Counted from the stretch's first letter, positions 17,719 through 37,393 are shown. The stretch: 64,000 nt of DNA from Planctomycetota bacterium (GCA_016178505.1 JACOTG010000201.1:2413-66412); one strand, 5' to 3'. Notes: a model not told the origin generated them from the letters alone. Numbers and translations: made by a program.

Positions 17719-17770
17719 TCTCGCCGCGAGTCGATCGAGTGCGAAACGAGTGGGCGAGAGCCGAACGGCT

Positions 17771-21765: not shown

Positions 21766-21801
21766 TCGCGGGGCGAAGGTATCAGACGGCGGGGCGGCGC
21801 G

Positions 21802-22503
21802 CTACGCGATCAACGCCGGAAGCTCCGTGAGGCGTCGGATGCGCAGGCCGTCGAACGGCACCGTGCCCGTGCGATCGAGGAACACGCCGGTCATCCCTTG
21901 AGACTGCGCGGCCCGCGCGTCCTTCTCGGGATGATCGCCGACGTGCATGGCGTCCTTGGCCGCGACGCCGATTCGTTCGAGTCCACGGCGGAAGAACTCG
22001 GGCGCGGGCTTTTCCATCTGTTCGCTGGCGGAGTCGAGCGTCACGGTGAACGCGTCGCCGAATCCGATGCCTCTGAGGATCTGCGGCAAGTCGACGCCCC
22101 AGTTCGACAGCACGCCGAGTCGAAGGCCGCGCTTTCGAAGCGTCGCCACGGCCTCGATCGCATCCGGGAACGCGACGAAGGTCTTGGGGTCGGCGAACGT
22201 CGCGAAGATCTTGGCAACGCACGGCTCGAGCTCGCCCCAGAACCCGACCTCGTCGAGAACGCGCTCGACGTAGCGACGGAACCACGCCGGTGAGAATCGG
22301 TAGCCGCCCTGCCAGACCAGCGGAAACGTTTTGTCCGCCGTTTCCATGACTTTCTTCATCAAGACGACGTCGACGGGATCGCCGAATTCGGAGGCGACGT
22401 GGGCATAGATCTCGTGGCGCGGTTGGCGAAGATCGAAGAGCGTTCCTCGGCCATCGAAGAAAACGGCCTTCACGCTGACGGGCACTTTCGTGGGCGTGGT
22501 CAT
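21802..22503 (-). CDS. HAD-superfamily hydrolase (haloacid dehalogenase-like phosphatase)
   Basis: VKAVFFDGRGTLFD (motif I DxD-type), LGVLSNW, VGDHPEKDARAAQSQGMTGVFL (motif IV). Start set to Met of MTTPTKVPV; the longer ORF N-terminus is Ser/Arg-rich junk. Confidence 0.65.
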   Translation of the reverse strand: MTTPTKVPVSVKAVFFDGRGTLFDLRQPRHEIYAHVASEFGDPVDVVLMKKVMETADKTFPLVWQGGYRFSPAWFRRYVERVLDEVGFWGELEPCVAKIFATFADPKTFVAFPDAIEAVATLRKRGLRLGVLSNWGVDLPQILRGIGFGDAFTVTLDSASEQMEKPAPEFFRRGLERIGVAAKDAMHVGDHPEKDARAAQSQGMTGVFLDRTGTVPFDGLRIRRLTELPALIA

Positions 22504-22549
22504 GGCGGAACTTCCTACCACGGGGTCGCAACGATGGCTACAGCCCCTC

Positions 22550-24988
22550 TCACTTGCCGGTAATGTAGCCCAATGCCCGCAAGCGCCGTCGCAATTCGTC
22601 GTCGAGGAAGCCTCGATTCCTCGGTTGATTCTCGGCGGTCCGATGGAGCCACTCGTCGAGGCGCTGGGACATTTGGCGCTCGACGTCGGGCTCGCTGCCC
22701 GAGACGTCCGTATGCTCGCCCGGGTCCGAGTCGAGGTGGAAGAACCGGAAGAGCGGCTCCAAGAGATCGATCCGCCAGAGCTTGCGGGCGCCCTGCCGGA
22801 TCGCGCTGATGCGGACGCGCTTCTTGAAAGACTCAGCATCTCGAAGCTCGCCGATGCCTTGCTCGGTGGTCGTGAACACCGGGCGGTCGGCGGCGCCGTT
22901 GGCGAGCACGTTGCAGCCCGCGATCGGGACGTCGAGAAGTGCGGCGAGCGTGGGCAGCACGTCTTCGCTTCCTACGGGCGTGTCGCTCTCGCCCGCCGCA
23001 ACCCTGCCAGGCCACCAGAAGACCAACGGCACGTGGACGGTTTCCTCGCTGACGTCGAACTCGTGCCCGAGGAATCCGTGTTCGCAAAATGCCTCACCGT
23101 GGTCGGACGTGAAGACGATCACGGTTCGATCGAGGATGCCGCGCGCGCGCAAGTCGTCGCGGAGCCGGCCGAAGCACTCGTCGAAGTACCCGATCTCCCC
23201 GTCGTAGCGGTCACGAATGAGGTCGATTTCTTCGGGCGTGAGCGCCAGACGTTGTCCTTGTTGGAGCGCTGCGTTGAACGCGTTCACCCGGGAGTTCACC
23301 GTGGCACCGAGACGGGTGGCGACCTCGGGCGACGCGAAGCGGTTGAGCCACGAGCCGGGCGCTCCGTAGGGCTGGTGCGGGTCGAAGTAGTGGAGATAGG
23401 CGAAGAACCGCGACTGAGAGTTTTGGTCGAGCCAATTCTCGAAGGCGCGGTTCACCTCTTCGGCACGAAGGCCGACGAGCTCCTGGAATTCATCGAATCC
23501 GCGGGCATAGCCGCCGTCGCGCGTGATCCACGGGTTCGTCACGAACGCCGCCGTGGAAAAGCCACGAGCTTGGAATCGCTCGGCTCCGTGTTGCACGTCT
23601 TCGGTGATTCGCGCGCGGTCGTAGGCGATTGCGCCGTGCTCGAGCGGCGGGAGAGCGGTGAGGATCGTTGTCGTCGACGGCACCGTCCACGACGACGCGG
23701 CAGTACACCGCCGGAAGAGAAGGCCCTGCGACGCCAGGCGATCGACGTTCGGGCTCGTATGTCGCGTGGACCCGTAGCAGCCGAGATGGTCGGCACGCAG
23801 CGTGTCGACGAGCACGAAGATCACGTTTGGCTTGCCCGAGTCGGCCACGTCCCTAGCGACCGTCCGCTCGCGAATCAGCGCGGCTCGCGTCCAGAAGAGC
23901 GGTGCGTATCCGTTGCGCCCATCGGCCCAGCTCGTCTGGAGAACGACCGGCGCCGGTTCGTTCGATAGTCCTGCGACGCGGAACCGCTTCGAATGCAAGC
24001 GCTGCAACGCGGCTTCCGTCATCGAGACTCGCTCTCGCAATTGCTCGCGGCCCGCGACGGACACGATGAACTCGACGTCGCCCTCAGCCGGGATGACGTC
24101 GTCTGGATGCAGGGCACGCGCGATTTTGGCGAGGGCACCGAATTCCACTTCCAGTGCCGCGCCTGCCGGCAGCGTCACCATCGCCGAGAGTCGCGAATCG
24201 GGCGGCATCTCGAGAAGCGGCTTGCCGTCGCCCTTGCCGACGACGACCGTGTTCGCCTTCAAGTCGTCGTATCCGTCCGTGCGGACGACCGCGCCGGTTG
24301 CCCACTCGGCGCGGAAGTCGCGCACGAGGTCGATCTGTGGAGTGTCGAGGACGATGAGAGCGTCGTCGCCCTCGAGCAGAGTTCCGTTCGAGAGGAAGAG
24401 CGGGTTTGCGAAACCGGCGAGCACGCTCGTGTCGTCGGGATGTCCAAGCCCGGCGGCGCGCATCTCGAGGTCGACCGTCCGGCCGCGAAAGCGCGAAAGG
24501 TCGAGGTCGGGGAGGTCGCGCCATGCGCGGTCCTCGCCGCGCTCGCCGGGGCGAAGTTCGACCACGAGCACCTCTTCGCCGCCCGCGAGAATCGAGAGGC
24601 GCGTCGCCGACGTTGGCTTTCCCCAGGACGCCGGATCGACGGCGGCACCGGCGAGAAGTCGCGCGCCCTCGCCGAGCACGAACGATGGGAACGTGACGCG
24701 CATGCCTTGCTGCAGTCGAATGACCTTTCGTGCTTCCTGGTTCACGAAGAACACAGGCACGCTGCGCAGGTCGGGGACGTCGGGCTCCATGCGGACGCGC
24801 GGGTTGGTGGAGTAGTCGCCTACGAGGTCGCGGGACGTGTTCGATCGGAAATGGGTGTCGCCGTGTTTGCCGTGGCAGCTCCCGGACACCATCGCGCCTG
24901 CAACGCAACACGCGGCGAGAACGACCACCGTCAACACATGGGTCGATCGGCGCGATGCCGGGGTTTTCGGGCCGGGACGGTGTGACAA
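22550..24988 (-). CDS. sulfatase-like hydrolase/transferase (alkaline-phosphatase superfamily) with ~350-aa N-terminal extra domain
   Basis: NVIFVLVDTLRADHLGCYG...NVDRLASQGLLFRRCTAASSWTVPSTTTILTAL matches the sulfatase-family N-terminal core. The canonical C/S-x-P-x-R is replaced by S-W-T-V-P-S. Signal peptide present. Confidence 0.6.
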   Translation of the reverse strand: MSHRPGPKTPASRRSTHVLTVVVLAACCVAGAMVSGSCHGKHGDTHFRSNTSRDLVGDYSTNPRVRMEPDVPDLRSVPVFFVNQEARKVIRLQQGMRVTFPSFVLGEGARLLAGAAVDPASWGKPTSATRLSILAGGEEVLVVELRPGERGEDRAWRDLPDLDLSRFRGRTVDLEMRAAGLGHPDDTSVLAGFANPLFLSNGTLLEGDDALIVLDTPQIDLVRDFRAEWATGAVVRTDGYDDLKANTVVVGKGDGKPLLEMPPDSRLSAMVTLPAGAALEVEFGALAKIARALHPDDVIPAEGDVEFIVSVAGREQLRERVSMTEAALQRLHSKRFRVAGLSNEPAPVVLQTSWADGRNGYAPLFWTRAALIRERTVARDVADSGKPNVIFVLVDTLRADHLGCYGSTRHTSPNVDRLASQGLLFRRCTAASSWTVPSTTTILTALPPLEHGAIAYDRARITEDVQHGAERFQARGFSTAAFVTNPWITRDGGYARGFDEFQELVGLRAEEVNRAFENWLDQNSQSRFFAYLHYFDPHQPYGAPGSWLNRFASPEVATRLGATVNSRVNAFNAALQQGQRLALTPEEIDLIRDRYDGEIGYFDECFGRLRDDLRARGILDRTVIVFTSDHGEAFCEHGFLGHEFDVSEETVHVPLVFWWPGRVAAGESDTPVGSEDVLPTLAALLDVPIAGCNVLANGAADRPVFTTTEQGIGELRDAESFKKRVRISAIRQGARKLWRIDLLEPLFRFFHLDSDPGEHTDVSGSEPDVERQMSQRLDEWLHRTAENQPRNRGFLDDELRRRLRALGYITGK

Positions 24989-25081
24989 GGAGCCTCCAAG
25001 GGTTTGCGCCGCGCCGACATCTTATTCCGAAAGGAGCCGGGCATCATCTGCCGATGGTATCGGACGCGAAAGGAGTCGAGC

Positions 25082-27088
25082 TTGCCCCGAGATCTCCCCA
25101 TCGGAAACGGAACCGTGCTCGTGAACTTCGACACGGTCCACCACGTCGTTCGCGACATCTATTTCCCGAGCGTCGGCCTGGAAAACCACACGATCGGCCA
25201 CCGCCAGGCGTTTGGCGTGTGGGTCGACGGACAGTTCGCTTGGATTTGGGACGGTTGGACGATCACGCGTCGATACGAAACGGACACGCTGGTCACGAAC
25301 GTCGTCGCGCGACACGATGTGCTCGGCATCGAACTGCGGATTCGCGATGCCGTCGACTTCCACCTTTGGGCGTATTTGCGCGAGATCGACGTCACGGATT
25401 TCCACGGTCAGGACCGCGAGGTGCGTCTCTTCTTCCATCTCGACCTGCACATCTCGGGCAGCGAGGTCGGCGACACGGCGCACTACGATCCGGTCACGCA
25501 GTCCGTCGTGCACTACAAGGGCGCGCGCTATTTCCTGCACGGCGCGGCCGTCGAGGGCCGTCCGGGCATTCACCAGTGGGCGTGCGGCGCCAAGGAGATC
25601 AACGGTGCCGAAGGAACGTGGCGGGACGCCGAGGACGGGCGGCTCGAGGGCAATCCGATCGCTCAGGGCGCCGTCGACTCGACGGTTGGCGTCACGGTGC
25701 GCGTGCCCGCGTTCGGCACGTCGCAGGCCCATTACTGGCTCGTCTTCCACAATGAGTATCGGGGCATCGCCAAGCTCGACCAGCTCGTGAAGGAGAAGGG
25801 CCCGAGTGCGCTGATCCATCGCACAGCCGCTTATTGGCGCGTCTGGTTGAATCGCGAGGACTGGAAGCTCGCCGGCCTGCCCGAGCGCGGCGTGCGCCTC
25901 TTCAAGCATAGTCTGCTGGTCCTGCGAACCCAGATCGACAACGGCGGCGCGATCATCGCGGCCAACGATCACGACATCACACAGTTCGCACGCGACACCT
26001 ACTCGTACTGCTGGCCGCGCGACGGGGCGCTCGTCGCTCACGCGCTGTCGATGGCGGGATTTGGCGAGGTTTCGCGCCGGTTCTTCGAGTTCTGCAAGAA
26101 GGTCATTCGCGAGGACGGCTGCTTCCTGCACAAGTACAACCCCGACGGTACACTCGCCTCGTCGTGGCATCCCTGGTATCGAAGCGGCCAGCCGGAGCTC
26201 CCGATCCAGGAAGACGAGACAGCGCTCGTCGTATGGGCACTTTGGAAGCACTTCGAGCGTTATCGCGACACCGAGTTTCTCACGCCGCTCTATCGCCATC
26301 TCGTTCTGAACGCCGGCGACTTCCTCGTTCGTCACCGCGACTCGGCGACCAAGCTTCCGTTGCCATCGCACGACCTGTGGGAGGAGCGATACGGCGTCCA
26401 CCTCTTCACGATCGCGGCGGTGGTCGGCGGACTCCGCGCGGCGGCGAACTTCGCGCGGACCTTCGACGACGTGACGAACGCTCGGCGCTATGCCGCCGCG
26501 GCCGATGAGGTCATCGAGGGACTCGGCCATTTCTTCTGGCACGAGGAGGAGCGTCGCTTCGCACGGATGGGAACCCGCAACGAGCGCGGCTACACCCTCG
26601 ACATGTGCACGGATGCCTCGGCGTACGGACTCTTCGCGTTCGGCGCGCTCCCCGCGAACGACCCGCGAGTCGTCGCGATGATGGAGGCCGTGCGCGAGCG
26701 GCTCACCGTGCGCACGCCGGTCGGTGGCGTTGCCCGCTACGAAAACGACCACTATCACCGCGTAGCGGACGACTCGTCAAAGGTTCCCGGCAACCCGTGG
26801 TTCATCTGCACGCTCTGGCTCGCACAGTTCGAGATCGCGCGCGCGACGAGCATCGACGAGCTGCAGCGTGAAACGCTGCCGATCCTCGAATGGGTGTGCG
26901 ACCACTGCCTTCCGACCGGCATCCTTGCCGAGCAGGTCCACCCGTTCGACAACCGACCGATCTCGGTCTCGCCGCTCACCTGGAGTCACGCGACCTACGT
27001 GACGACCGTCCTCCAGTACGCGGAGAAGCACCGCCGCCTCTCGACCCCGCACCGCCGCGCCAACGACACGCGCATCCCGATCGCGTAA
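25082..27088 (+). CDS. glycoside hydrolase family 15 (glucoamylase/glucodextranase-like)
   Basis: RDLPIGNGTVLVNFD N-terminus and (alpha/alpha)6 barrel-region motifs (WPRDGA, HLFT.AAVVGGL) characteristic of GH15. TTG start chosen at 25082. Confidence 0.65.
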   Translation: MPRDLPIGNGTVLVNFDTVHHVVRDIYFPSVGLENHTIGHRQAFGVWVDGQFAWIWDGWTITRRYETDTLVTNVVARHDVLGIELRIRDAVDFHLWAYLREIDVTDFHGQDREVRLFFHLDLHISGSEVGDTAHYDPVTQSVVHYKGARYFLHGAAVEGRPGIHQWACGAKEINGAEGTWRDAEDGRLEGNPIAQGAVDSTVGVTVRVPAFGTSQAHYWLVFHNEYRGIAKLDQLVKEKGPSALIHRTAAYWRVWLNREDWKLAGLPERGVRLFKHSLLVLRTQIDNGGAIIAANDHDITQFARDTYSYCWPRDGALVAHALSMAGFGEVSRRFFEFCKKVIREDGCFLHKYNPDGTLASSWHPWYRSGQPELPIQEDETALVVWALWKHFERYRDTEFLTPLYRHLVLNAGDFLVRHRDSATKLPLPSHDLWEERYGVHLFTIAAVVGGLRAAANFARTFDDVTNARRYAAAADEVIEGLGHFFWHEEERRFARMGTRNERGYTLDMCTDASAYGLFAFGALPANDPRVVAMMEAVRERLTVRTPVGGVARYENDHYHRVADDSSKVPGNPWFICTLWLAQFEIARATSIDELQRETLPILEWVCDHCLPTGILAEQVHPFDNRPISVSPLTWSHATYVTTVLQYAEKHRRLSTPHRRANDTRIPIA

Positions 27089-27094: not shown

Positions 27095-28537
27095 TCAAGG
27101 ATGCCGAAGGTCCGAGCCGGCGATCTTGCGGCGCAACCGCGCGAGGTATGCTCGCGCGATTCGCTGGCGGAGGGGAGCGTCGGGAAAGGTGATCGTCGGA
27201 TCAGAGAATCCAGCCCAGCCAAAGCGCACGTCGGCGGCCTCCGTGCGAAATGCAAGCGAGATCGTGCGACCGGCGAAGGGCCCGAGGTCGACCTCGACGG
27301 GATGCCAGCGACGATCGGCGGCAATGTTCTTCGGATCGACGAACTGGGAGCGAAGATCCGTGCGCTTGCCCCCCGCGAACGCGGCGATCGTGAACGTGAC
27401 GCCGGCGCCTTTGTCGGGGCTCCAGACGTCTGGGTTGAGCGCGAACGCGGTGCGCAGCGTCGCCGCGCGCGGCACGCGCACGCGAAACCGCACCTCGCTC
27501 ACCGGATGCACCAGCAGCGTCGGTCGTGGGTCGCCGCCGACCGTGAACACCGTTTCATAAACGCTCGTGCGATCTCCTGCGACCACCTGCGCTCGCGCGA
27601 GTCGACGCAAGAGCCGAAACGTTCCGCCCGTTTCGTACGGATCGTATGCGGCGAGCGCCGCGCCAATCACCCCTGCGCCGGCGATGAGCGGCGCCTTCAC
27701 GCCCCACCCGAATCGCTTTCCTTCGTCGATCGGACTTTCGGCGACGACGCGCTCGTTCTCGCGCCACTCGTAGCGGAACGACGCCACCATGTCGGCGACG
27801 GTGTGGAAGTACACGAGCCCGAACCAATCCCGCGCGCACCACTGGTCGAGGTAGAGACGCCGAAACGTATGGCGGATCGTCGGCCGGTGCGAGTGATAGA
27901 CGAGCGAGCGCGGCTCGAAGACGACGCGATGTCCCGCTAGAATCGCCTTCCGGCTCCAGTCGACGTCCTCGGCCCACAAGTTCTCTGCAATCGGAATCCG
28001 CTCCCACACGGATCGGCGCCGCGCGGACGACACGTCGTCGAAATTGCAAAGCATCCGGCGCTGCTTCGGCGTGAGCTCGGCGAACGCTTCCGGCGAAGCG
28101 ATCTCGGAGACCCGCGGCTCTGCCGCCGACGTCATCCACGCGAGCAGCTGGCGGCGCTCGACGGGGTCCGCCGCTTCTCTCGGGAGCTGGCGGCTGTAGG
28201 CGCCGGCCACGCGCGGGTCGCGATCGAAGTTCTCGACGAGCATCGAGAGCCACGCCGAATCGGCCGGCATCGCGTCCGCGACGAGACAGACCAAGATCTC
28301 GCCCGTGGCCGCCTGGCATCCGAGGTTTCGCGTGGCGCCGTGGTTGAACTGAGTGGGCCGGATCTCGATGAGGCGAGCCGGCGTGCGGCGCACGATCTCC
28401 TGCGAGCCGTCGGTGGATCCGGAATCGATGACGATCACCTCGAACGGGGCGGGGAAGTCCTGCGAAAAGACGGCGTCGAGGAGTCGCGGCAAGTTTGCCG
28501 CCTCGTTCTTCGCCGGGATGACGATCGAGACTTTCAG
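27095..28537 (-). CDS. glycosyltransferase family 2 with C-terminal TM and extra domain (start codon uncertain, overlaps the upstream stop)
   Basis: KVSIVIPAKNEAANLPRLLDAVFSQDF...EVIVIDSGSTDGS (GT2 motifs). No in-frame ATG near the domain start. The upstream ORF portion overlaps the epimerase gene in another frame. Confidence 0.5.
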   Translation of the reverse strand: MKVSIVIPAKNEAANLPRLLDAVFSQDFPAPFEVIVIDSGSTDGSQEIVRRTPARLIEIRPTQFNHGATRNLGCQAATGEILVCLVADAMPADSAWLSMLVENFDRDPRVAGAYSRQLPREAADPVERRQLLAWMTSAAEPRVSEIASPEAFAELTPKQRRMLCNFDDVSSARRRSVWERIPIAENLWAEDVDWSRKAILAGHRVVFEPRSLVYHSHRPTIRHTFRRLYLDQWCARDWFGLVYFHTVADMVASFRYEWRENERVVAESPIDEGKRFGWGVKAPLIAGAGVIGAALAAYDPYETGGTFRLLRRLARAQVVAGDRTSVYETVFTVGGDPRPTLLVHPVSEVRFRVRVPRAATLRTAFALNPDVWSPDKGAGVTFTIAAFAGGKRTDLRSQFVDPKNIAADRRWHPVEVDLGPFAGRTISLAFRTEAADVRFGWAGFSDPTITFPDAPLRQRIARAYLARLRRKIAGSDLRHP

Positions 28538-29661
28538 TGCGTGAGGCCTCGGGCGTCCAGTTCCTTCTTCGCCGAGTCGAACCGGTCGGCTGCGGTCTGC
28601 GTCCGCACCCAGCCGAGGAGATCGTCGACGCCTTTCTCGAACGCGACTTTTGGCCGGAATCCGAGGAGCTGGGTCGCTCGTGAGATGTCGGCGGCGCAGT
28701 GGCGGATGTCGCCCTCTCGGAACTTGTGCTCGACCGACGGCGTCAGCCCGCGCCCCGGCTGCAGCTTCGAGATGAGCAAGTTCGACAGCTCGAGCACCGA
28801 GAAACGGCGACCCGTGCCGATGTTCACCGGTTCGTAATCGGCGCCGCTCGTCTCGAGCGCGAGCACGTTCGCCTGCGCGATGTCCGAGACGTGCACGAAG
28901 TCCCTCGTCTGCAAACCGTCCTCGAACACGACGGGTCGTTGCCCGTTCAGCAAGCGTCCCGAAAAGATCGCCGCGACGCCGGTGTACGGGTTCGAGAGCG
29001 CTTGGCGCGGGCCGTAGACGTTGAAGTACCGCAGCGCGATGGTGGGGATGCGGTACGACCATCCCACCGACAGGCACAGCTCCTCCTGATCACGCTTCGT
29101 CACGGCGTAGACCGACGTCGGTACGAGCGGCTTCTGCTCGTCGGTCCCCACGGGCTCGAGCGTGCCGTGGCCGTTCGGGCACTCCACTTCCCAACGACGC
29201 GCTTCGAGCTGTGCGCGCGGCCGCAGCTTCGGCGCGAGATCGCCGCACGTCTTGCATCGGTAGCGGCCCTCGCCGTAAATCGACATCGACGACGCGACGA
29301 CGAGCTTCTTGATCCGGTCGCGACGCTTCACGATCGCTTCGAGCAGACGCGCGGTGCCCACGCAGTTCGCTTCGGTGTAGGCATCGATTTGGTACATCGA
29401 CTGCCCGACACCAACCTTCGCCGCGAGGTGCAGCACCCAGTCGATTCCGTCGAGCGCGCGCTCGACGGCGGTGCGATCGAGCACGTCACCGCGCTGGAAC
29501 TCGACCTTCTTCGAGAGGTAGTCGGGCGGCCCCGAGAGGGAGCCGTGGACTTGAGGATCCAGGCTGTCGAGCACGCGGATCACGTGCCCGCGAGGCAAGA
29601 GCGCGTCGATCGTGTGCGAGCCGATGAACCCGGCGCCGCCCGTGACGAGAACGTGTGCCAT
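28534..29661 (-). CDS. NAD-dependent epimerase/dehydratase (SDR; UDP-glucuronate decarboxylase / dTDP-glucose dehydratase-like) with a ~35-aa Zn-ribbon insertion
   Basis: VLVTGGAGFIGSH. Catalytic YAVTK. Insertion YRCKTCGDLAPKLRPRAQLEARRWEVECPNGHG (C-x2-C...C-x3-H) between the Ser and Tyr-x3-Lys regions. Confidence 0.75.
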   Translation of the reverse strand: MAHVLVTGGAGFIGSHTIDALLPRGHVIRVLDSLDPQVHGSLSGPPDYLSKKVEFQRGDVLDRTAVERALDGIDWVLHLAAKVGVGQSMYQIDAYTEANCVGTARLLEAIVKRRDRIKKLVVASSMSIYGEGRYRCKTCGDLAPKLRPRAQLEARRWEVECPNGHGTLEPVGTDEQKPLVPTSVYAVTKRDQEELCLSVGWSYRIPTIALRYFNVYGPRQALSNPYTGVAAIFSGRLLNGQRPVVFEDGLQTRDFVHVSDIAQANVLALETSGADYEPVNIGTGRRFSVLELSNLLISKLQPGRGLTPSVEHKFREGDIRHCAADISRATQLLGFRPKVAFEKGVDDLLGWVRTQTAADRFDSAKKELDARGLTH

Positions 29662-29664
29662 CCG

Positions 29665-31209
29665 CTACGCTCCCACGGCCAGGTCATGGCCGATGGGGCT
29701 CGGGCTCGGCTGGAACGGCGCCCCCGGCAACTTGATCTCGATTCCGCTCCAACGCTCGATTCCGATCGCTTGCTTCAAGTTCGGCATCTCGGCCTCCACC
29801 CGGTTGGTCGTGAGGCTGTCGAGGAACGCGTCGCGGCGACCGGCCGCGAGGTGGTCGAATTGGTAGTTGAGGAAGAATCGCACGTACTGGCGGACCGCGT
29901 TCTCATAGGTCATCCGATAGAGCCAATCCGTCTCGACTTCGCTCACGTTCGCGCCGATCCCCGTGCGCGACGCCTCGACCCACTCTTCGAGCGACGCCGG
30001 CGGGACGAAGTCGCCGCGCCGCACGCTGAGATCGAAGAGCGGCGTTCCCGGCACGGGCTGGTAGACCTGGATGCAGTTGAGCGTGGAGGGAATGAACCGC
30101 ATGAGGTCCATCGTCTGCTCCATTTCTTCGCGCGTTTCCGTCGGGAAGCCGAACACGTACGAGGCGATCGAGTAGATCCCGGCCTTCGACAACGAGCGCG
30201 TCACTGCAGCGACCACCTTGCGATCGATTTCCTTGTCGAGCATTTCGAGGATTCGGTTCGACCCGGACTCGACCCCGAAGAAGAGCATCTCGCAGCCGGC
30301 GCGCGCCAGGAGTTGGATCAACTCGTCGTCGAGCATCGACTGGCGACCGGACGCGTACCACTTCGCATCGAGGCCGCGGCCGATGAAGTAATCGCAGTAC
30401 TCGCGCGTCACGCGCCGATTGAAGATCGTCAACATGTCGATGAAGTCGAATGCCGTCACGTCGTGCCGCGACAGGCTGCGGATGAACTCGATCTCGCGGA
30501 CGATCCGCTCGGGGTGCGTGTAGCGGTACTTGCCGAGGTAGTCGCGCACGTTGTCATTGGCCTGGAAGCAGAACGTGCAGCGGTAGATGCAGGACCGCGA
30601 CGTGTTCATCTTGATGCGCCAGCGGTCCGAGAGACGCAAGTCCTCGCCGATGCGCGTCGCGTAACGGTCGATGTCGGGTAGGAGGTCCCACGCCGGAAGG
30701 GGCAGCTCGTTGAGGTCGACGCCGTCACCGTGCGGCGGGAAGACCTCGATGCGCCCGCCGTCCTTTCGCTTGATCGCGACGTTGTGGAGCCGCACGCCGT
30801 CGCGCCGGCCTTGAAAGTGTCGCAAGAGGTCTCGCGTCGCGTGCTCGCCTTCTCCGATGACGACGGCGTCGATCGCCGGATGCTCGAGCGTTTGTTCCGG
30901 CAAGATCGTGGGATGGGGACCGCCCCATATCACCGTCGCACCCAGCTCCTTCGCGACCTTCGAGATGAGGAGCGCGCGCCCGAGCTGCGGTCCGGTGAGC
31001 GCGCTGACGCCAACGACGTCGGGGGTGTGGCGCTGGAGCGCGGCCTCGACCGTGGCCCGATCGAGCGGACGCCGGTCGTAGTCCTCGATCGCGACCTCAT
31101 GCCCGTCTTCACGAAGCACGGCCGCGAGGGCGATCGCCCATAGGGGCGGGTAGGTGGTGTCGTATCCGCAGACGTCGTCCTTGCCGGGATTGAGGAACAG
31201 CACCCGCAT
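29665..31209 (-). CDS. B12-binding-domain radical SAM enzyme (class B radical SAM, probable C-methyltransferase)
   Basis: N-terminal cobalamin-binding-like domain (MRVLFLNPGKDD...). Radical SAM cluster motif CIYRCTFC (CxxxCxxC). Confidence 0.75.
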   Translation of the reverse strand: MRVLFLNPGKDDVCGYDTTYPPLWAIALAAVLREDGHEVAIEDYDRRPLDRATVEAALQRHTPDVVGVSALTGPQLGRALLISKVAKELGATVIWGGPHPTILPEQTLEHPAIDAVVIGEGEHATRDLLRHFQGRRDGVRLHNVAIKRKDGGRIEVFPPHGDGVDLNELPLPAWDLLPDIDRYATRIGEDLRLSDRWRIKMNTSRSCIYRCTFCFQANDNVRDYLGKYRYTHPERIVREIEFIRSLSRHDVTAFDFIDMLTIFNRRVTREYCDYFIGRGLDAKWYASGRQSMLDDELIQLLARAGCEMLFFGVESGSNRILEMLDKEIDRKVVAAVTRSLSKAGIYSIASYVFGFPTETREEMEQTMDLMRFIPSTLNCIQVYQPVPGTPLFDLSVRRGDFVPPASLEEWVEASRTGIGANVSEVETDWLYRMTYENAVRQYVRFFLNYQFDHLAAGRRDAFLDSLTTNRVEAEMPNLKQAIGIERWSGIEIKLPGAPFQPSPSPIGHDLAVGA

Positions 31210-31261
31210 GTGGTCGAGCTCCGGGACGTGAAGCCGAGGTTACCGCCGCCGATCGGCCGTT

Positions 31262-31368
31262 CGTGACGCCGGGATCACCGCCGACCGTGGCGCGGGCGTG
31301 ATGCCGGGATCACTACCGACGATGGGGCGGGCGTGATGCCGGGATCACTACCGACAATGGGGCGGGAT
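31262..31368. repeat. three tandem ~35-37-bp direct repeats, each containing a GTGAT-N6-ATCAC inverted repeat, in the divergent promoter region between the radical SAM gene and wzm
   Basis: Units cgtgacgccgggatcaccgccgaccgtggcgcgggcg / tgatgccgggatcactaccgacgatggggcgggcg / tgatgccgggatcactaccgacaatggggcgggat. Copies 2 and 3 are 33/35 identical. Confidence 0.7.
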
Positions 31369-31491
31369 TATAGCGCAGCAGGGTGCAGATTCAATCGTGG
31401 CGCACTGGACGGTCCCGCGGCACGCCATTACACTCAGTCGCTCTTTTTGTTCTGTGCCTCGTCGAACTGCGGCCCCGCATCTGGAAACGCC

Positions 31492-32331
31492 ATGTTATCT
31501 GGGCTCGCGCGCATCGCCGGTTTCCCGGCAGAGCTGTACCGCTATCGCGGCCTGATCTCGACGCTCGTGCGGCGCGAGATCAAGGGGCGGTATCTCCAGT
31601 CGGCATTCGGGGGGATCTGGGCCGTCGTCAACCCACTGTTCATGCTGGTCGTGTACACGTTCGTCTTCTCGGGGATTTTCCACGTCGAGGCACCGGCGAC
31701 GGCGGCGCTGAAGACGGAGGGGCAGAAGACCGTCGCGGCCGCTCTCTACATCTTCTGCGGGATGATCCCCTGGATGGCGTTCGCCGAAGGCCTCCATCGC
31801 TCGACGATGATCGTGATGGAGAACGCCAACCTCATCAAGAAGGTTGCGTTCCCGTCCGAGATCCTGCCGGTGTACGTCGTTCTCTATACGGTCGTGAACG
31901 AGCTGATCGGGCTCGGCCTGCTCGTCATCGCGACCGCCATCCTGCTCCATACCGTGTCGCCGTTCCTGTTCATGTATCCGGTCCTGCTGGCGATGCGGAT
32001 CCTGTTCTCGTTCGGCATCTCTTACTTCTTCGCCGGCTTCAACGTCTTCGTGCGCGACTTCGGGCACGTGGTCGGCCTCGTGGTCACGATGTGGATGTTC
32101 CTGACGCCGATCTTCTACTTCCGCGAGAAGATCGGGGAGGAGTGGGTGCGCACCGTTCTCGGGTTCAACCCGATGTATCACCTCATCAACTCGTATCGAG
32201 ACGTGTTCTTGAACGGGCGAATGCCGGCACTCGACAGCCTCGGCATCTTCCTCGCGTTCGCCCTCGTGTTCTTCACCGTGGGGTATCTCTTCTTCATGTC
32301 TTCCAAGCACAAGTTCGCGGACGAGATTTAG
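31492..32331 (+). CDS. wzm: ABC-2 type polysaccharide/O-antigen export permease (Wzm/KpsM-like)
   Basis: 6 TM ABC-2 permease, LYRYRGLISTLVRREIKGRY N-terminus typical of Wzm/TagG. Start moved from the ORF-track 31333 (inside the repeats) to ATG 31492. Confidence 0.7.
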   Translation: MLSGLARIAGFPAELYRYRGLISTLVRREIKGRYLQSAFGGIWAVVNPLFMLVVYTFVFSGIFHVEAPATAALKTEGQKTVAAALYIFCGMIPWMAFAEGLHRSTMIVMENANLIKKVAFPSEILPVYVVLYTVVNELIGLGLLVIATAILLHTVSPFLFMYPVLLAMRILFSFGISYFFAGFNVFVRDFGHVVGLVVTMWMFLTPIFYFREKIGEEWVRTVLGFNPMYHLINSYRDVFLNGRMPALDSLGIFLAFALVFFTVGYLFFMSSKHKFADEI

Positions 32332-32334
32332 CGC

Positions 32335-33585
32335 GTGAGCGACGACTTCGCCGTCAAGACCTGGGACCTCAGCAAGAAGTACAAGCTCTACAAGAAGTCC
32401 TACCACCGCGTCCTGGAAGCGCTCTCCGGTCAACGCAAGCGGTACCACGAGGAGCTGTGGGCGCTGCGCGACGTGAACATCGAAGTGGCGAAGGGGTCGG
32501 TGCTCGGCATCGTGGGATCGAACGGCGCCGGCAAGTCCACGTTGCTGAAGCTCCTCACCGGGACGTCGTACCCGACCACCGGCCGGATGCAGGTGAACGG
32601 CAAGATATCCGCGCTCCTCGAGCTCGGCGCCGGCTTCCATCCCGACTTCACGGGTCACGACAACATCTACATGAACGCGTCGATCCTCGGTTTCACGCAC
32701 GACGAGATCGACGAGAAGTACGAAGACATCGTCCGGTTCTCCGAGCTCGGCGACTTCATTCAACAGCCGGTCCGCATCTACTCGTCGGGCATGGTGATGC
32801 GCCTCGGCTTCTCGGTCGCGATCTCGATGGACCCGGACGTGATGATCATCGACGAGATCCTCGCGGTCGGGGACCAGCACTTCCAGAAGAAGTGCATCGA
32901 CCGGATTCATTCGTTCAAAGAGCGCGGGAAGACGATCCTCTTCTGCTCGCACACCCTCTATCACGTGCGCCAGATCTGCGACCGCGCGATCTGGATCAAG
33001 CAGGGTCGCGTCGAGATGGACGGCAATCCGATCGACGTCACGAACGAGTACGGCAACTTCGAGAGGCGGCTCTTCAAGGAGGCGATGACGCACGAGGCGA
33101 AGCACTACGCTTACGTCTCGGGCACGGAAAAGAAGGAGCTGCCGTTCATCGAGTCGGTGGAGCTGTCGCCGGCGGGAAAGAACGCGCCGATCCGGACTCT
33201 GCGCACGGGACAGGACTTCGACGTGACCGTGCGCTACACCATCCCGGACCGAAAGATGAAGGTGAACGTCGGCGTCGCGATCAACCGCGCAGACGGCATC
33301 TTCTGTTTCGGCTCGTCGATCGACCACGACAAGATCGATTTCGAATCGCAGGGAGGCATCGCCGTCTATCGAGTCCAGAATCTGCGGCTTCTCGCCGGCG
33401 AATACAACGTTTCTGTCTACCTCGCGGACGACAAGTCCCTCGTCGTCTACGATCAGAAACCCGAAGAGCTCGAGTTCAAGGTCGAGTACTCGGGCTACCA
33501 CATCGGTCTCTTCCTCCCGGATAGCCAGTGGGTCTTCCCCAAGAACTCTCAGAACGGCCGCAGCGAAACGAAGAAAGGCGAGTGA
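32335..33585 (+). CDS. wzt: ABC transporter ATP-binding protein (Wzt/TagH-like) with a C-terminal ~160-aa substrate-recognition extension
   Basis: Walker A GSNGAGKSTLLKLL, signature YSSGMVMRLGF, Walker B MIIDEILAVGD, H-loop. Extra C-terminal beta-rich domain as in O-antigen Wzt. Confidence 0.8.
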   Translation: MSDDFAVKTWDLSKKYKLYKKSYHRVLEALSGQRKRYHEELWALRDVNIEVAKGSVLGIVGSNGAGKSTLLKLLTGTSYPTTGRMQVNGKISALLELGAGFHPDFTGHDNIYMNASILGFTHDEIDEKYEDIVRFSELGDFIQQPVRIYSSGMVMRLGFSVAISMDPDVMIIDEILAVGDQHFQKKCIDRIHSFKERGKTILFCSHTLYHVRQICDRAIWIKQGRVEMDGNPIDVTNEYGNFERRLFKEAMTHEAKHYAYVSGTEKKELPFIESVELSPAGKNAPIRTLRTGQDFDVTVRYTIPDRKMKVNVGVAINRADGIFCFGSSIDHDKIDFESQGGIAVYRVQNLRLLAGEYNVSVYLADDKSLVVYDQKPEELEFKVEYSGYHIGLFLPDSQWVFPKNSQNGRSETKKGE

Positions 33586-33595
33586 GCGCGCGACG

Positions 33596-35416
33596 ATGAG
33601 CCACCCTTCCAGCGAGGGCGAGAACTTCCTCGGGCCGGTCTACCCGACGGCGAACGCGGCGCGCATGGTCGAGCGGTTCGGCATCCGAGAAACCGACCGC
33701 GTGCTCGACGTCGGGGGCGGCTTCTATCCATTCAAGCGTGCCGACGTGATCACCGACCTTTCGTTCAGCGACACGACGAACCGCAACGGCGCGCAGATGC
33801 TCTTCACCGAGGGCAAGCGCTACGTCGAGTGCCCGGCCGAGACGCTGCCGTTTCGCGACAAGGAGTTCGACTTCGTCTTCTGCTCGCACGTACTCGAGCA
33901 CACGGTCGACCCGGCCGCCGCGTGCGGGGAGATCCAGCGCGTCGGCAAGCGCGGGTACATCGAAGTGCCGCACAAGTTCTCCGAGTACCTGACGGGGAAT
34001 CCGACGCACCGGTGGCTGGTGACGCCGAAGGACGGCGGCCTTCGCTTCGAGGCGAAGAACTTCATCGAATCACCGTTCCAGAACGTGCTTCACAGTCACA
34101 TCGTGAACGACCCCGAGTTCCAGGGAGTGGCGGCGGGCTCGTTCCGCAACCTGCTCAACATCCAGCTCGCGTGGACGGGCTCGTTCCCGGTGGAGGTCGT
34201 GCGAACCGTGGAGCGCGGCGAGCGCTTCGACTACGACGACCCGCGTCAAGCCGGGCTCGCGCATCTCCTGTTCGCGTTCAACAACCTCAAGTGGGACGCC
34301 AACTGCGAATATGCGCTGTGCGATGCCATCGAGGCGACGCGCTTCCTTCCCGACGATGCGGACGCCTGGCACGTGCTCGGGATCTACTACTTGCGGCTCC
34401 TGATGCTGCGCGAGGGGCGAGACTGCCTCGTGCGCGCGCGAGAGCTGCGGTCCGGCGACGCGACGATCGAGCACAACCTCGCACTCGCGGAGCGTTTTCT
34501 CGCGGAGCATCGATGCGATCTCCGCCAGGTCGCGTTGCCGAAGATCCGCCGCGCGATCGACGGCGCGAAGCCGCGAGCATCTCTGGCATCTGCTGCATCG
34601 CCTCTCGTCAGCATCTTGTACCGCGCGCCGGCGACCGCGGACGCGATCCGCGAAGGGTTCTCCAGCATCGCGGCGCAGCGATATCCGAACCGCGAGACGA
34701 TCATCGTGAGCGAGGCCCCCGACGACGCCCGGCGCGCGCTCGCCGGTTTGTCCACCGAGATGTCCGTGCGATACGTGGCGACGCCGCGCGGGTCGTCGCC
34801 CGGCGTCGCGTTCAACTCGGCGCTTCGCGACGCGAAAGGGGAGATCGTCGCATACCTCGACCCGGACCAGCTCTATCAGGTCTACCACTTGCCGCGCCTC
34901 GTCGGCTTCCTGAACGCGTCGGGCGAGTCGGTTGCGTACTCGGATGCGCTCCGCGTTGGCTTCTCCGAGTCCGCAGGATCGCCGCGTCGCTACGCTTGGG
35001 ACTCCCAGGTCGTCCTCTCGACCGAGTTCGATCCGCGCGACCTCGAGGGGCGGCCGAGCGCTGCCGTGCCGATCGGCGCGATCGTCCACCGGAGGTCGTG
35101 CGCGGACGCCGTCGGCGGGCTCGACCCCGTGATGCGCGACCTGCTCGGGCGTGATCTCCTTACGCGCCTGTCGCGAGGCTTCCGGATCCACCACGTTCGC
35201 GAAATCACCCTCGAGTGGCGAGTGCCGTCGGCCGGCGCGGCGACCAGCGCCGACCCCGGCGCGGTTCCGGCGGAAGGCCAGCGATTGCTCGACCGATACT
35301 CGCACTTCGAGCCGCTCGAGCTCATGCGCAAGGTCGTCGAGCTCTACAACATGAACGAGTACTTGCGGCACGAGCTGGAGCGAACGAAATCGGGCTCGTC
35401 GGCGAAGACGCCGTGA
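33596..35416 (+). CDS. bifunctional SAM-dependent methyltransferase / glycosyltransferase family 2 protein (chain-terminator-like)
   Basis: Class I MTase motifs VLDVGGGFYPF and FDFVFCSHVLEH in aa 1-200. TPR-like linker. C-terminal GT2 region SILYRAPATADAIREGF...YLDPDQ. Confidence 0.6.
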   Translation: MSHPSSEGENFLGPVYPTANAARMVERFGIRETDRVLDVGGGFYPFKRADVITDLSFSDTTNRNGAQMLFTEGKRYVECPAETLPFRDKEFDFVFCSHVLEHTVDPAAACGEIQRVGKRGYIEVPHKFSEYLTGNPTHRWLVTPKDGGLRFEAKNFIESPFQNVLHSHIVNDPEFQGVAAGSFRNLLNIQLAWTGSFPVEVVRTVERGERFDYDDPRQAGLAHLLFAFNNLKWDANCEYALCDAIEATRFLPDDADAWHVLGIYYLRLLMLREGRDCLVRARELRSGDATIEHNLALAERFLAEHRCDLRQVALPKIRRAIDGAKPRASLASAASPLVSILYRAPATADAIREGFSSIAAQRYPNRETIIVSEAPDDARRALAGLSTEMSVRYVATPRGSSPGVAFNSALRDAKGEIVAYLDPDQLYQVYHLPRLVGFLNASGESVAYSDALRVGFSESAGSPRRYAWDSQVVLSTEFDPRDLEGRPSAAVPIGAIVHRRSCADAVGGLDPVMRDLLGRDLLTRLSRGFRIHHVREITLEWRVPSAGAATSADPGAVPAEGQRLLDRYSHFEPLELMRKVVELYNMNEYLRHELERTKSGSSAKTP

Positions 35417-35432
35417 CCCTGGGCGCGACATA

Positions 35433-36530
35433 GTGGCCGACCTCGCCGTCGTCGTCGTCAACTACAACTCCGCGGACTTCTTGCGGGGATGCGTGGAGTC
35501 TCTTGGTCAAGCGGGCGGCGGATCTCTCGAGATCGTGATCGTAGACAACGGCTCGGAGCCGGACGACCGCGCCGCCGCGCACGCGCTCGCGGGACCTCAC
35601 GTGCACGTCATCGACGCGCCGGACAACCCGGGGTACGGCGGCGGGCTCAACCGCGGGATTGCGCTCACGACGGCGCCGTTTCTCGCGCTGATGAATCCCG
35701 ATGTTCGCGTCTGCCCGGGCGCGTTCGACGAGCTGCGTCGTTGGGTCGAGGCCGACGCGCTGATCGGCGCGGCGGGTCCGCGCACGTTCATGGACGAGGG
35801 TCTTCTGATCCAGCACCCGATGAATCGTCTCCTCACGCCGGGGCGATTCCGAGCGGCCGCGCGGGCGCTCGACGATCCTTCGACCGCTCGTCGATTCGTC
35901 GGAGGCTACACGCGCTATGCACTGCGGTACTGGGCGTCGGTCTTTCCGAGGCCGATCGAAATGCTCTCCGGCGCGTGCCTCTTCACCCGGCGCGACGTCA
36001 TCGAGAAGGTCGGCGTCTTCGACGAATCGTTTCCGCTCTACTTCGAGGACGCGGATTGGTGCGCTCGAGTCCGCGAGTTCGGTTACCGCCTCGAGTACGT
36101 TCCGGCGGCGCGCATCCTCCATTTCCACAACATCAGCGGCTCGCGATCACCCGAGGTCGCGGCGAAGCGCTACGCGGTCGCGGAAGCGCGATTCGCTACA
36201 AAGCACTTCGGCCGCCTCGGGCAGTGGCGATACCGTCGTGAGTCGGCACGTCGAGCCGAGCGACTCGCCGCCGGCCCACCCTTGTCGCCCTGGCCGCTGA
36301 TCGACCTCGGGGCCCTCGGCGAGCCGCCGGCGTTTCCAGCACGCGGGCCCGCGCTCGCGGAGGTCGCGGGAACGCCTCTCTTCGACTACCCGGTTGCGAG
36401 CTTCGTCGGCGCCGAACCGTTCAGCATCCCCGACGACGTGTGGGCACGAATGGGAAGCGGGCCGTGGTTCGTGCGCGTGGTGCTCCTTGACGCGACGACG
36501 GTGGTCCGCGCGTGGACGTTTAGAAAATGA
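35433..36530 (+). CDS. glycosyltransferase family 2
   Basis: LAVVVVNYNSADFLRGCVESL...VIVDNGS...DNPGYGGGLNRG (GT2 A-type motifs). GTG start. Confidence 0.65.
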   Translation: MADLAVVVVNYNSADFLRGCVESLGQAGGGSLEIVIVDNGSEPDDRAAAHALAGPHVHVIDAPDNPGYGGGLNRGIALTTAPFLALMNPDVRVCPGAFDELRRWVEADALIGAAGPRTFMDEGLLIQHPMNRLLTPGRFRAAARALDDPSTARRFVGGYTRYALRYWASVFPRPIEMLSGACLFTRRDVIEKVGVFDESFPLYFEDADWCARVREFGYRLEYVPAARILHFHNISGSRSPEVAAKRYAVAEARFATKHFGRLGQWRYRRESARRAERLAAGPPLSPWPLIDLGALGEPPAFPARGPALAEVAGTPLFDYPVASFVGAEPFSIPDDVWARMGSGPWFVRVVLLDATTVVRAWTFRK

Positions 36531-37393
36531 GCAGCATGCAGCGGAAGATCGCGGATCCGACGACGCTCGGCGAGTGCGTGCGGACGATGTTTCCGGAATC
36601 GTCGGGTCGGACGCGCAAGCAGTTCCTGGAAGCCGGGCGAGTGCGGGTGAACGGCGTCACGCAAAAGATCGCCCGCACGCCCCTCGCGGCCGGTGACGTC
36701 GTCGAGGTAGGCGATGGTGAGGTGTCGACGAAACTGCCGCGCGGCGTCGAGATCATCCACGAAGACGACGACCTCCTGGTGATCGTGAAGGGGCCGAACC
36801 TCCTCACCGTCGCCAGCGATCGCGTGCGCGACCGCACCGTTTATGCGTTCCTGACGGACTACGTCCAGAAGCGCGCGCCCGAGGCACGGGTCTTCATCGT
36901 TCATCGCCTCGACCGCCTCGCCTCTGGGCTGCTCGTGTTCGCGAAGACTCCGGAGATGAAGATCGCGCTCCAAGCGCAGTTCGAGGCGCACACGGCCGAG
37001 CGCGTCTACGTGGCCGTCGTCGAAGGCCGCCCCGAACGGCGAGAAGGGGTGATCGACAAGCGGCTGGCTGAAGATCCGACGTCGGGGAAAATGCGCGCAG
37101 CGCGCGCGACCGACGTCGAAGCGCGCGACGCCATCACCCGCTGGCGCGTGCTGCGCGAAGGCACACGTACGACCACCCTCGAAGTGCGCCTCGAGACGGG
37201 ACGCAAGAATCAGATCCGTGTCCACCTCGCGTCGGTCGGCCACCCGATCGTCGGCGACGAAACGTACGGCAGCCGCGTCGATCCCATTGGGCGCCTCGCG
37301 CTCCACGCACGGACGCTGGCGTTCGATCATCCGCGAACCGGCGCGAGACTCCGCTTCGAGTCTCCGCCGCCGAGCGCGTTCCAGAAGATCTGA
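36527..37393 (+). CDS. RluA-family 23S rRNA/tRNA pseudouridine synthase (RluC/RluD-like, S4 domain N-terminal)
   Basis: Catalytic motif HRLDRLASGLLVFAKT. S4-like RVRVNG. ATGA overlap with the upstream GT2 stop. Confidence 0.8.
   Translation: MSSMQRKIADPTTLGECVRTMFPESSGRTRKQFLEAGRVRVNGVTQKIARTPLAAGDVVEVGDGEVSTKLPRGVEIIHEDDDLLVIVKGPNLLTVASDRVRDRTVYAFLTDYVQKRAPEARVFIVHRLDRLASGLLVFAKTPEMKIALQAQFEAHTAERVYVAVVEGRPERREGVIDKRLAEDPTSGKMRAARATDVEARDAITRWRVLREGTRTTTLEVRLETGRKNQIRVHLASVGHPIVGDETYGSRVDPIGRLALHARTLAFDHPRTGARLRFESPPPSAFQKI

Follow-up and report, generated by a model that had tools for sequence, protein, structure and literature searches.

A predicted ABC-transporter-dependent glycan cluster of a Planctomycetota bacterium with a conserved B12-radical SAM partner

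Introduction

Enterobacteria and Geobacillus provide well-understood examples of the assembly of capped glycan chains that are exported by an ATP-binding cassette (ABC) transporter. In the S-layer glycan pathway of Geobacillus stearothermophilus NRS 2004/3a, the N-terminal methyltransferase (MT) of WsaE terminates the chain with a 2-O-methyl cap, to which Wzt is predicted to bind (PMC2943079). The ORF6 protein of Klebsiella pneumoniae O7 is a terminator-polymerase in which an MT, a coiled coil and a family 2 glycosyltransferase (GT2) are joined. Where such systems have been characterised, export is restricted to terminally capped chains if Wzt bears a carbohydrate-binding module at its C-terminus (PMC11231755). 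The gene cluster described here is located at positions 27095-36530 of a 64,000-nucleotide stretch of DNA from a Planctomycetota bacterium (GCA_016178505.1 JACOTG010000201.1:2413-66412), the whole of which is designated the window. In this cluster the genes of the exporter Wzm/Wzt and of an MT-GT2 fusion diverge from the gene of a cobalamin-binding (class B) radical S-adenosylmethionine (SAM) enzyme, designated rSAM1.

The cobalamin motifs of class B radical SAM enzymes (GxSxL, GG and GE) were defined from the structures of OxsB, TsrM and TokK (PMC9204698). ApyD is a proven cobalamin-dependent radical SAM C-methylase (PMC10635010), and AprD4 is partnered with the reductase AprD3 in the apramycin pathway (PMC5461906). 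Many B12-radical SAM genes in the glycan loci of uncultured bacteria and archaea are unassigned, and the literature searched contains no description of a cobalamin radical SAM enzyme within an O-antigen/Wzm-type pathway or an archaeal glycan cluster.

Organization of the gene cluster

The G+C content of the window is 61-70% and, therefore, most of the listed open reading frames (ORF) are spurious. The real frames were chosen by their coding signature, which consists of a high G+C content at the third codon position (GC3) and of GC1 > GC2, and the domains were assigned with Pfam and NCBIfam. The gene set that an earlier reading of the sequence alone (the sequence-only reading) had placed in the cluster is present in these frames. 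It is arranged in two divergent, tightly packed operons with intergenic gaps of 3-16 nt. The operon on the minus strand encodes rSAM1 (29665-31209; 514 amino acids (aa); PF02310, 89 bits; PF04055, 60 bits), a short-chain dehydrogenase/reductase (SDR) that resembles GalE-type epimerases and contains a zinc-ribbon insert (28534-29661; 375 aa; PF01370, 179 bits), and the glycosyltransferase GT2a (27095-~28533; ~479 aa; PF00535, 83 bits, residues 3-112). The operon on the plus strand is separated from rSAM1 by a divergent region of 280 bp. It encodes the ABC-2 permease Wzm (31489-32331; 280 aa counted from the Met at 31489, in an ORF that opens at 31333), the ABC ATPase Wzt with a C-terminal carbohydrate-binding domain (32335-33585; 416 aa; PF00005, PF14524), the fusion of an MT, a TPR-like linker and a GT-A (GT2) domain (33596-35416; 606 aa; PF08241, PF00535) and the glycosyltransferase GT2b (35433-36530; 365 aa; PF00535, 68 bits). 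In the source annotation of the metagenome-assembled genome the cluster genes bear generic names only. Wzm and Wzt had been read as flanking the fusion; both genes precede it and the actual order is wzm-wzt-MT/GT2-GT2b.

Strong internal terminators that would split these genes into unrelated operons had been named as an observation that would refute the sequence-only reading. A terminator and promoter scan of 24.5-39.5 kb reveals no terminator-like site between the cluster genes, and fewer such sites than in shuffled sequence, and the objection is rejected. Rfam and tRNA scans of the whole window yield no match and no B12 riboswitch. The divergent promoter region contains a tandem repeat (31221-31366) of 3-3.6 copies of 35 bp (Tandem Repeats Finder score 161, 90% matches), each unit of which holds the palindrome GTGAT-N6-ATCAC (three matches versus none expected by chance). 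From its sequence, the repeat looks like a candidate operator array. It is not kept in the relative L001 (77% rSAM1 identity), where the common part is only a short TACACT...CTCTTTTT stretch 5' of wzm.

The five-gene module in bacteria

Only a handful of rSAM1 relatives have at least 46% identity. The contigs with bacterial relatives are designated L001/L002, L058, L059, P0003 and P0004. The rSAM1 gene is divergent from Wzm-Wzt(Wzt_C)-MT/GT2-GT2b in L001/L002 (77% rSAM1 identity) and in L058 and L059 (47-49%). The module formed by these five genes is new and is conserved in at least four lineages, and the gene arrangement is more than chance, as the divergent layout is kept in three other contigs. 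The Wzm proteins of L001, L058 and L059 are 46-69% identical to that of the window, and orthologues of GT2b occupy the same position in the three loci with 38-66% identity. The translated GT2b contains the canonical motifs VVDNGS... and NPD, as well as ~100 extra C-terminal residues.

The genes located downstream of rSAM1 vary. In the window these are the SDR, GT2a, the convergent glycoside hydrolase family 15 gene (GH15), and the sulfatase-like, HAD and MatE genes. In L001 the SDR is followed by the sulfatase-like, HAD and MatE genes, and in L058, L059 and P0003 an acylphosphatase gene is found, followed by HAD in L058. Thus, the conserved unit comprises five genes and excludes the SDR. The contigs P0003 and P0004, with rSAM1 relatives of 50% identity, are too short to show the wzm side.

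In L001, L058 and L059 the plus-strand operon extends further, with the gene of a paralogous B12-radical SAM enzyme (rSAM2, ~26% identical to rSAM1), a GT2, a PIG-L deacetylase, three GT2 and two family 4 glycosyltransferases (GT4). The rSAM2 region corresponds to positions 3003-4358 in L001, 13232-16574 in L058 and 13409-16719 in L059. The rSAM2-GT2-PIG-L trio recalls the HpnI/HpnK/HpnJ set, which forms the cyclitol of hopanoids. The window cluster looks like a truncated version of these loci.

A scan of GTDB genomes with the rSAM family alignment retrieved 43 loci and a scan of JGI metagenomes with the bacterial-clade alignment retrieved 80 loci, none of which belongs to the bacterial clade. 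The best GTDB matches (31-39% identity) are DPANN loci and one binned Paceibacterota, and the rest are distant paralogues. As no further bacterial members were retrieved, the module appears rare in these collections and the counts rest on four loci and short contigs.

The radical SAM enzyme

The CxxxCxxC motif of rSAM1 (C207, C211 and C214) is invariant in a family alignment of 26 sequences. The cobalamin motifs G67-V-S69-A-L71, G96-G97 and G119-E120 are invariant or nearly so in the same alignment, and the structure model contains the radical SAM barrel fold. Judging from these residues, rSAM1 very probably binds cobalamin.

The affiliation of the enzyme within class B is less uniform. The NCBIfam scores are 162 bits for ApyD, 129 for BchE, 105 for PhpK, 94 for MgmA, 84 for HpnJ and 78 for AprD4 (NF033070, cutoff 500 bits), and the match with the ApyD hidden Markov model (HMM) spans both domains. 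The names GenK, GenD1, Fom3 and MoeK5 are not among the 25 NCBIfam matches listed, all of which are far below cutoff. The nearest characterised relatives are of mixed function: the C-methylases ApyD, TsrM and MgmA stand beside the dehydratase AprD4 and the cyclase BchE. The sequence-only reading proposed a class B enzyme to be compared with known sugar C-methyltransferases. Its first half holds, since the cobalamin motifs are intact, whereas no grouping of rSAM1 with a known sugar C-methylase emerges from the listed family models. A grouping with non-methylating families, which had been set down as counting against that proposal, has partly come about, because the neighbours are mixed and AprD4 is the closest solved one. 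C-methylation of a sugar is the leading guess for the activity of rSAM1, because the cobalamin motifs are intact and methylases are the majority among its neighbours.

An uncultured Planctomycetia contig (L022) contains seven B12-binding radical SAM paralogues within ~18 kb (3475-21170), with a GT2 gene interspersed, and is an extreme example of radical SAM-rich glycan or lipid loci.

The DPANN sister clade

The GTDB and JGI scans yielded many loci of a sister clade of rSAM1 at 33-40% identity, and its named organisms are almost all DPANN archaea (Nanoarchaeia, Pacearchaeota and Woesearchaeota). In a rough neighbour-joining tree, the bacterial rSAM1 clade and the DPANN clade are sisters, well apart from other B12-radical SAM proteins. 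The DPANN loci (L003, L005, L008, L011-L017, L019, L021 and L060-L101; 49 non-redundant) share a cassette with the order GT2, B12-radical SAM, short SDR, SPASM radical SAM, GT2 and PMT_2 GT-C glycosyltransferase. Each count refers to the loci with enough flanking sequence to judge. A GT2 gene is directly upstream of the radical SAM gene in 25 of 36 loci and the short SDR directly downstream in 26 of 35. The SPASM radical SAM enzyme is present in 20 of 30, the second GT2 in 19 of 24, and in 22 of 24 the PMT_2-type GT-C is found at a distance of up to 7 kb. Certain variants are reduced to the radical SAM-GT2-GT-C part, without the SDR and SPASM genes. In the two loci with Pfam annotation the cassette is placed beside AglB/STT3, a GT4-family initiating transferase and a flippase. 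The archaeal short SDR belongs to a different SDR family from that of the window and the two are alike in the Rossmann part only.

Together, the DPANN cassettes and the bacterial glycan module tie the rSAM1 family to glycan assembly in both domains. No description of the DPANN GT2-rSAM-SDR-SPASM-GT2-GT-C cassette was found in the literature searched.

The exporter and the methyltransferase-GT2 fusion

Wzm has six hydrophobic segments and is recognised as an ABC-2 permease (PF01061, 92 bits). The nucleotide-binding domain of Wzt (residues 7-253) matches Aquifex aeolicus Wzt (8dku, 6an5) with E = 7e-77. The carbohydrate-binding domain predicted for its C-terminus is confirmed by HMM, as Wzt_C (PF14524) scores 47.9 bits over residues 272-384, above the Pfam cutoff of 30.4. 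These two matches uphold the assignment of the locus as an ABC-transporter-dependent glycan cluster. The carbohydrate-binding part of Wzt is 49-66% conserved in the related loci.

The AlphaFold2 model of the fusion (predicted local distance difference test score of 84.4) has four parts, which include, besides the GT-A domain, a class I MT (residues 1-205), TPR-like helical repeats (216-304) and a 28-residue C-terminal helix (573-600). An N-terminal SAM-dependent MT is thus joined to a GT2 domain and the gene is placed directly after wzm-wzt, which is the WsaE-like arrangement. The sequence-only reading considered the fusion as a WbdD-like terminator. The protein contains no kinase Pfam match and no long coiled coil, and no WbdD chain is found among the PDB sequence hits up to E = 1; therefore, it is not a member of the WbdD family and was rejected as a WbdD homologue. 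Of that proposal, membership of the WbdD family falls, and chain termination by methylation is made plausible by the precedents of WsaE and O7 ORF6 and by the joint conservation of the MT and Wzt domains.

Across the related loci the MT domain is the best-conserved part of the fusion, with 57-63% versus 37-39% for the GT-A domain; the value for the carbohydrate-binding domain of Wzt is 49-51%. The conservation of the MT together with the carbohydrate-binding domain of Wzt fits a conserved pairing of a cap and its reader. By analogy with WsaE, which is the nearest precedent from experiment, a methyl-capping terminator whose cap is read by the Wzt domain is plausible.

The MT module (residues ~9-300) was scanned against 1.8 billion representative proteins. 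It is found alone, in fusions of ~550-640 aa, and in proteins of 1000-2100 aa with further MT, GT1, GT2 and TPR modules. This pattern is typical of the polymerase/terminator proteins of ABC-transporter-dependent pathways, and the terminator-like fusion is an ordinary member of a large family.

The SDR and its zinc ribbon

The SDR begins 3 nt downstream of the rSAM1 stop in the window and the two genes overlap by 1 nt in L001. Its best solved relatives are the epimerases PelX, WbpP, WbgU and GalE (E from 1e-39 to 1e-42). The motifs G8-G-A-G-F-I-G14, S124-127 and Y185-x3-K189 are invariant in the family alignment. The score against the TIGR01179 GalE model is 154 bits (cutoff 262), so that membership of the GalE subfamily is tentative. 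In the NDP-hexose 4,6-dehydratases (NDP, nucleoside diphosphate), the active-site Ser/Thr is followed by a catalytic Asp-Glu pair (S/T-D-E-V-Y-G in RmlB). At this position the SDR lacks the pair and reads S124-S-M-S-I-Y-G, which points to an epimerase and not to a deoxy-sugar-forming dehydratase, and its score against the dTDP-glucose dehydratase model is 132 bits, below the 365-bit cutoff. The deoxy sugar suggested by the sequence-only reading is consequently not supported.

The insert C136-K-T-C139...C161-P-N-G-H165 is located between the SSMS and YAVTK motifs (residues ~133-170). C136, C139 and C161 are conserved in the family; most members have a Cys as the fourth ligand, which is replaced by Gly-His in the window clade only. 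At least 8000 database proteins of ~374 aa share 60-65% identity with the window SDR. Many members of the family are labelled 'dTDP-L-rhamnose 4-epimerase' by JGI and several are from named Pyrinomonadaceae (Acidobacteria). On three long contigs of this family the gene is surrounded by GT1, GT2, PMT_2 and asparagine-synthase genes, and its vicinity contains no radical SAM gene. The SDR is not beside rSAM1 in two of the four bacterial loci (L058 and L059), nor in the P0003 contig. The zinc ribbon noticed earlier is therefore real but not special to this locus, since CxxC...CxxC is found throughout a large SDR family of clusters free of radical SAM genes. The SDR is an ordinary member of that family and was rejected as a dedicated radical SAM partner on both grounds, its huge family and its absence beside rSAM1 in L058 and L059.

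GT2a and the neighbouring genes

GT2a was described as a GT2 with a large C-terminal domain, and this is confirmed. The GT2 domain (residues 1-226) is followed by ~230 further residues without a Pfam match, which comprise a hydrophobic segment (278-296) and then a beta-rich C-terminal domain of ~180 aa. The listed ORF of 660 aa is inflated by a spurious upstream extension, as the GC3 signal begins at ~28530. There is no ATG, GTG or TTG between the SDR stop and the first conserved beta-strand of GT2a. The sole start candidate is a CTG that overlaps the SDR TGA (C-TGA / CTG-A, 28528-28536) and is the likely start of GT2a; the overlap suggests translational coupling with a rare start codon. GT2a is absent from L001, L058 and L059.

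GH15 (25004-27088, plus strand), a glucoamylase or oligosaccharide amylase-like gene convergent with GT2a, is placed between the rSAM1 operon and the sulfatase-like gene. At the corresponding position of L001 both GH15 and GT2a are absent. The syntenic accessory block on the minus strand (20224-24988) is formed by a MatE/MOP-family membrane protein (20224-21765), a HAD hydrolase (within 21802-22839) and an exported sulfatase-superfamily protein of 812 aa (22550-24988; PF00884). In L001 these genes follow the SDR with 55-73% identity, and L058 likewise has a HAD gene close to rSAM1. The 812-aa protein has an N-terminal signal or anchor and, apparently, a Thr at the formylglycine Cys/Ser site (S-W-T-V-P-S-T versus C-x-P-S-R). 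It appears from this site to be LtaS/EptA-like, and not a true sulfatase. Two beta-rich repeats in its N-terminus weakly resemble the C-terminal domain of GT2a (pairwise E of 3e-5 and 1e-3), a similarity that hints that both proteins bind the same polymer.

On the other side of the cluster, an RluA-type pseudouridine synthase gene (S4 and PseudoU_synth_2 domains; 36527-37393, plus strand) overlaps the GT2b stop by 4 nt (ATGA). Further downstream, an LPS-core-like region (49143-61208; LPS, lipopolysaccharide) contains a family 9 glycosyltransferase (GT9) of the heptosyltransferase type (49143-50369), two Kdo/WaaP-family kinases (56437-57420 and 58118-59950, the latter apparently tandem), a GT2 (57342-58244) and a GT4 (59985-61208).

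Other genes of the window are recorded as side observations. A short exosortase (EpsH) fragment (15542-16090, minus strand) is near the gene of a repeat-rich secreted protein of 454 aa (17771-19135, minus strand). The C-terminus of this protein resembles a PEP-CTERM-type sorting signal, as a Pro-rich stretch is followed there by a hydrophobic helix and basic residues. The gene of the 454-aa protein also adjoins the cluster in L001 (65% identity). Two sigma-54 activators are encoded on the plus strand, one in a 1788-aa protein with Ser/Thr kinase, AAA_16, TPR, GAF, sigma-54 activator and helix-turn-helix domains (4926-10292) and a second one with FHA and GAF input domains (43429-45381).

Discussion

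We propose that the cluster is an ABC-transporter-dependent surface-glycan (O-antigen-like) module with a WsaE-like cap, an SDR epimerase and a sugar modification by rSAM1, and we give this reading a probability of about 0.5. In the cytoplasm, GT2b and the GT-A domain of the fusion would assemble the chain on a polyprenyl carrier, with GT2a as a lineage-specific extra. The SDR would supply a C4-epimerised NDP-hexose or NDP-N-acetylhexosamine. With cobalamin, rSAM1 would modify one of the sugars by radical chemistry, most likely by methylating an unactivated carbon, and its substrate may be nucleotide-linked, lipid-linked or polymeric. The N-terminal MT of the fusion would O-methylate the non-reducing end, as WsaE does, and growth would stop. 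The C-terminal domain of Wzt would then recognise the methyl cap and Wzm/Wzt would export the finished chain. The same enzyme family may do an equivalent job in the DPANN glycosylation cassettes. An O-antigen-like destination of the glycan is plausible, because LPS-core-type genes (GT9 and WaaP/Kdo-type kinases) are located 13-25 kb downstream of the cluster.

Several observations weigh against this proposal. rSAM1 reaches no curated family cutoff, its best NCBIfam match being ApyD with 162 bits versus 750; its closest solved relative, by profile and fold, is the dehydratase AprD4, and its second-best HMM match is the cyclase BchE. The long coiled coil of the characterised terminators is replaced in the fusion model by a single 28-residue helix. 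The fused GT-A domain has a DXD motif in the window protein (L-D-P-D), but the motif is not conserved across the family, so that this domain may not be a conventional transferase. The window lacks the rSAM2-GT2-PIG-L extension with its three GT2 and two GT4 genes, an RluA-type gene standing in its place, and therefore the product may be simpler or the pathway incomplete. Among the scanned window proteins there is neither an initiating phosphoglycosyl transferase nor a WaaL ligase, and the SDR is the sole nucleotide-sugar synthesis gene. The genes of an initiating transferase and a ligase may be encoded elsewhere in the genome; wecA of enterobacteria is encoded away from the cluster.

A bolder version of the proposal, which we regard as doubtful, places rSAM1 in a glycan-specific family of cobalamin radical SAM enzymes of Planctomycetota and DPANN that would introduce a radical-based change, either a C-methyl or another alteration of the carbon skeleton, into a carrier-linked or polymeric sugar, with rSAM1 as an obligatory fifth component of the pathway. 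Under such a reading the terminal epitope read by the Wzt domain might be generated by rSAM1 or might require it.

It is unlikely that rSAM1 and the SDR form a pair of the AprD4/AprD3 type, in which the radical SAM enzyme would dehydrate a vicinal diol to a keto-deoxy product and the SDR would reduce it with NAD(P)H, giving a deoxy sugar without a 4,6-dehydratase. The pairing of AprD4 with the reductase AprD3 is a precedent (PMC5461906), and the close spacing of rSAM1 and the SDR (a 3-nt gap in the window, a 1-nt overlap in L001) and the short SDR that directly follows the radical SAM gene in 26 of 35 sister-clade loci agree with it. However, the archaeal SDR is of a different family, the window SDR comes from a huge GalE-like family that occurs without radical SAM genes, and the gene is not next to rSAM1 in L058, L059 and P0003. 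To our knowledge AprD4 works without cobalamin. Its N-terminal domain gives 9 bits, i.e. no match, with the rSAM1 family profile, whereas the cobalamin motifs of rSAM1 are kept throughout, and the AprD4 model scores 78 bits versus a cutoff of 500.

A cobalamin-dependent rearrangement without methylation has a similarly low probability. The enzyme could contract a ring or form a carbocycle, as OxsB and HpnJ do, or carry out a cyclisation, as BchE does, and this would lead to an unusual cyclitol-like or branched glycan residue. BchE is indeed the second-best curated match (129 bits) and HpnJ reaches 84 bits, yet all these scores are far under the family cutoffs, and the nearest characterised relatives include more methylases than rearrangement enzymes. 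The trio of rSAM2, GT2 and PIG-L in L001, L058 and L059, presumably HpnI/HpnK/HpnJ-like, would favour such chemistry, but it concerns a paralogue with ~26% identity that is missing from the window.

It is very improbable that the two operons are unrelated neighbours and that rSAM1, SDR and GT2a serve another pathway, such as a lipid or a MatE/MOP-exported glycan. In favour of this reading, the operons are separate transcription units on opposite strands, the genes after rSAM1 differ between loci (SDR, GT2a, acylphosphatase or HAD) and the MatE/MOP protein and sulfatase-like exoenzyme are syntenic on the rSAM1 side, but the rSAM1/wzm junction with its divergent orientation persists in all four loci, despite a divergence to 47-49% identity, while the surroundings change, and no bacterial-clade rSAM1 is away from Wzm/Wzt on the contigs that show both flanks (P0003 and P0004 being too short).

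In summary, we read the cluster as an ABC-transporter-dependent glycan pathway with capping of the WsaE type, joined by a conserved B12-radical SAM partner that is uncharacterised. The new part is the rSAM1 family, the five-gene module and the cross-domain distribution, and the value of a follow-up lies there. Being small and conserved, the module is a tractable system for learning how a radical SAM enzyme acts on a sugar. The link with the DPANN GT-C cassettes suggests that similar chemistry decorates archaeal surface glycans. If rSAM1 indeed C-methylates an unactivated carbon in a lipid-linked or polymeric sugar, class B radical SAM chemistry would extend from antibiotics and cofactors to cell envelopes.

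Comparison with known systems

rSAM1 was compared with the class B C-methyltransferases (ApyD, TsrM, MgmA, CysS and TokK, and the sugar-active GenK and Fom3 types), and none of the listed NCBIfam matches reaches its family cutoff. The Trp that follows the Cys motif in TokK is absent from rSAM1, which reads C214-F-Q, and the substrate of rSAM1 is presumably a sugar rather than a peptide or an antibiotic. AprD4 has the closest solved structure, acts on a sugar and has a reductase partner (PMC5461906), whereas its N-terminal domain is not matched by the rSAM1 family profile and the SDR partner of rSAM1 in the window is not conserved. The SDR shares GxxGxxG, the catalytic Ser and YxxxK with the 4-epimerases GalE, WbpP and PelX and differs by a Cys4-type zinc-ribbon insert of ~35 residues, found in none of the solved relatives.

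Among the exporters, Aquifex aeolicus Wzm/Wzt (6an5, 7k2t and 8dku) includes the closest solved homologue of the window Wzt. The PDB match is limited to the nucleotide-binding domain (window residues 7-253), and both chains, of 404 aa in Aquifex and 416 aa in the window, extend past it. The O7 ORF6 protein, a larger version of the WsaE-type idea, and WbdD of E. coli O9a likewise have an MT module tied to the polymerase machinery and a Wzt with a carbohydrate-binding domain (PMC11231755), whereas the window fusion has neither a kinase domain nor an extended coiled-coil ruler.

WsaE itself has two rhamnosyltransferase domains, in contrast to the single divergent GT-A domain and TPR-like linker of the window fusion. 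There are no rml genes at the window cluster, and a radical SAM partner is not described in the account of the WsaE cluster (PMC2943079). On the other hand, the two systems have in common an N-terminal SAM-dependent MT joined to a GT2-type transferase in an ABC-transporter-dependent pathway, the order wzm-wzt-MT/GT, and near-overlapping genes, with overlapping codons in the case of WsaE (PMC2943079).

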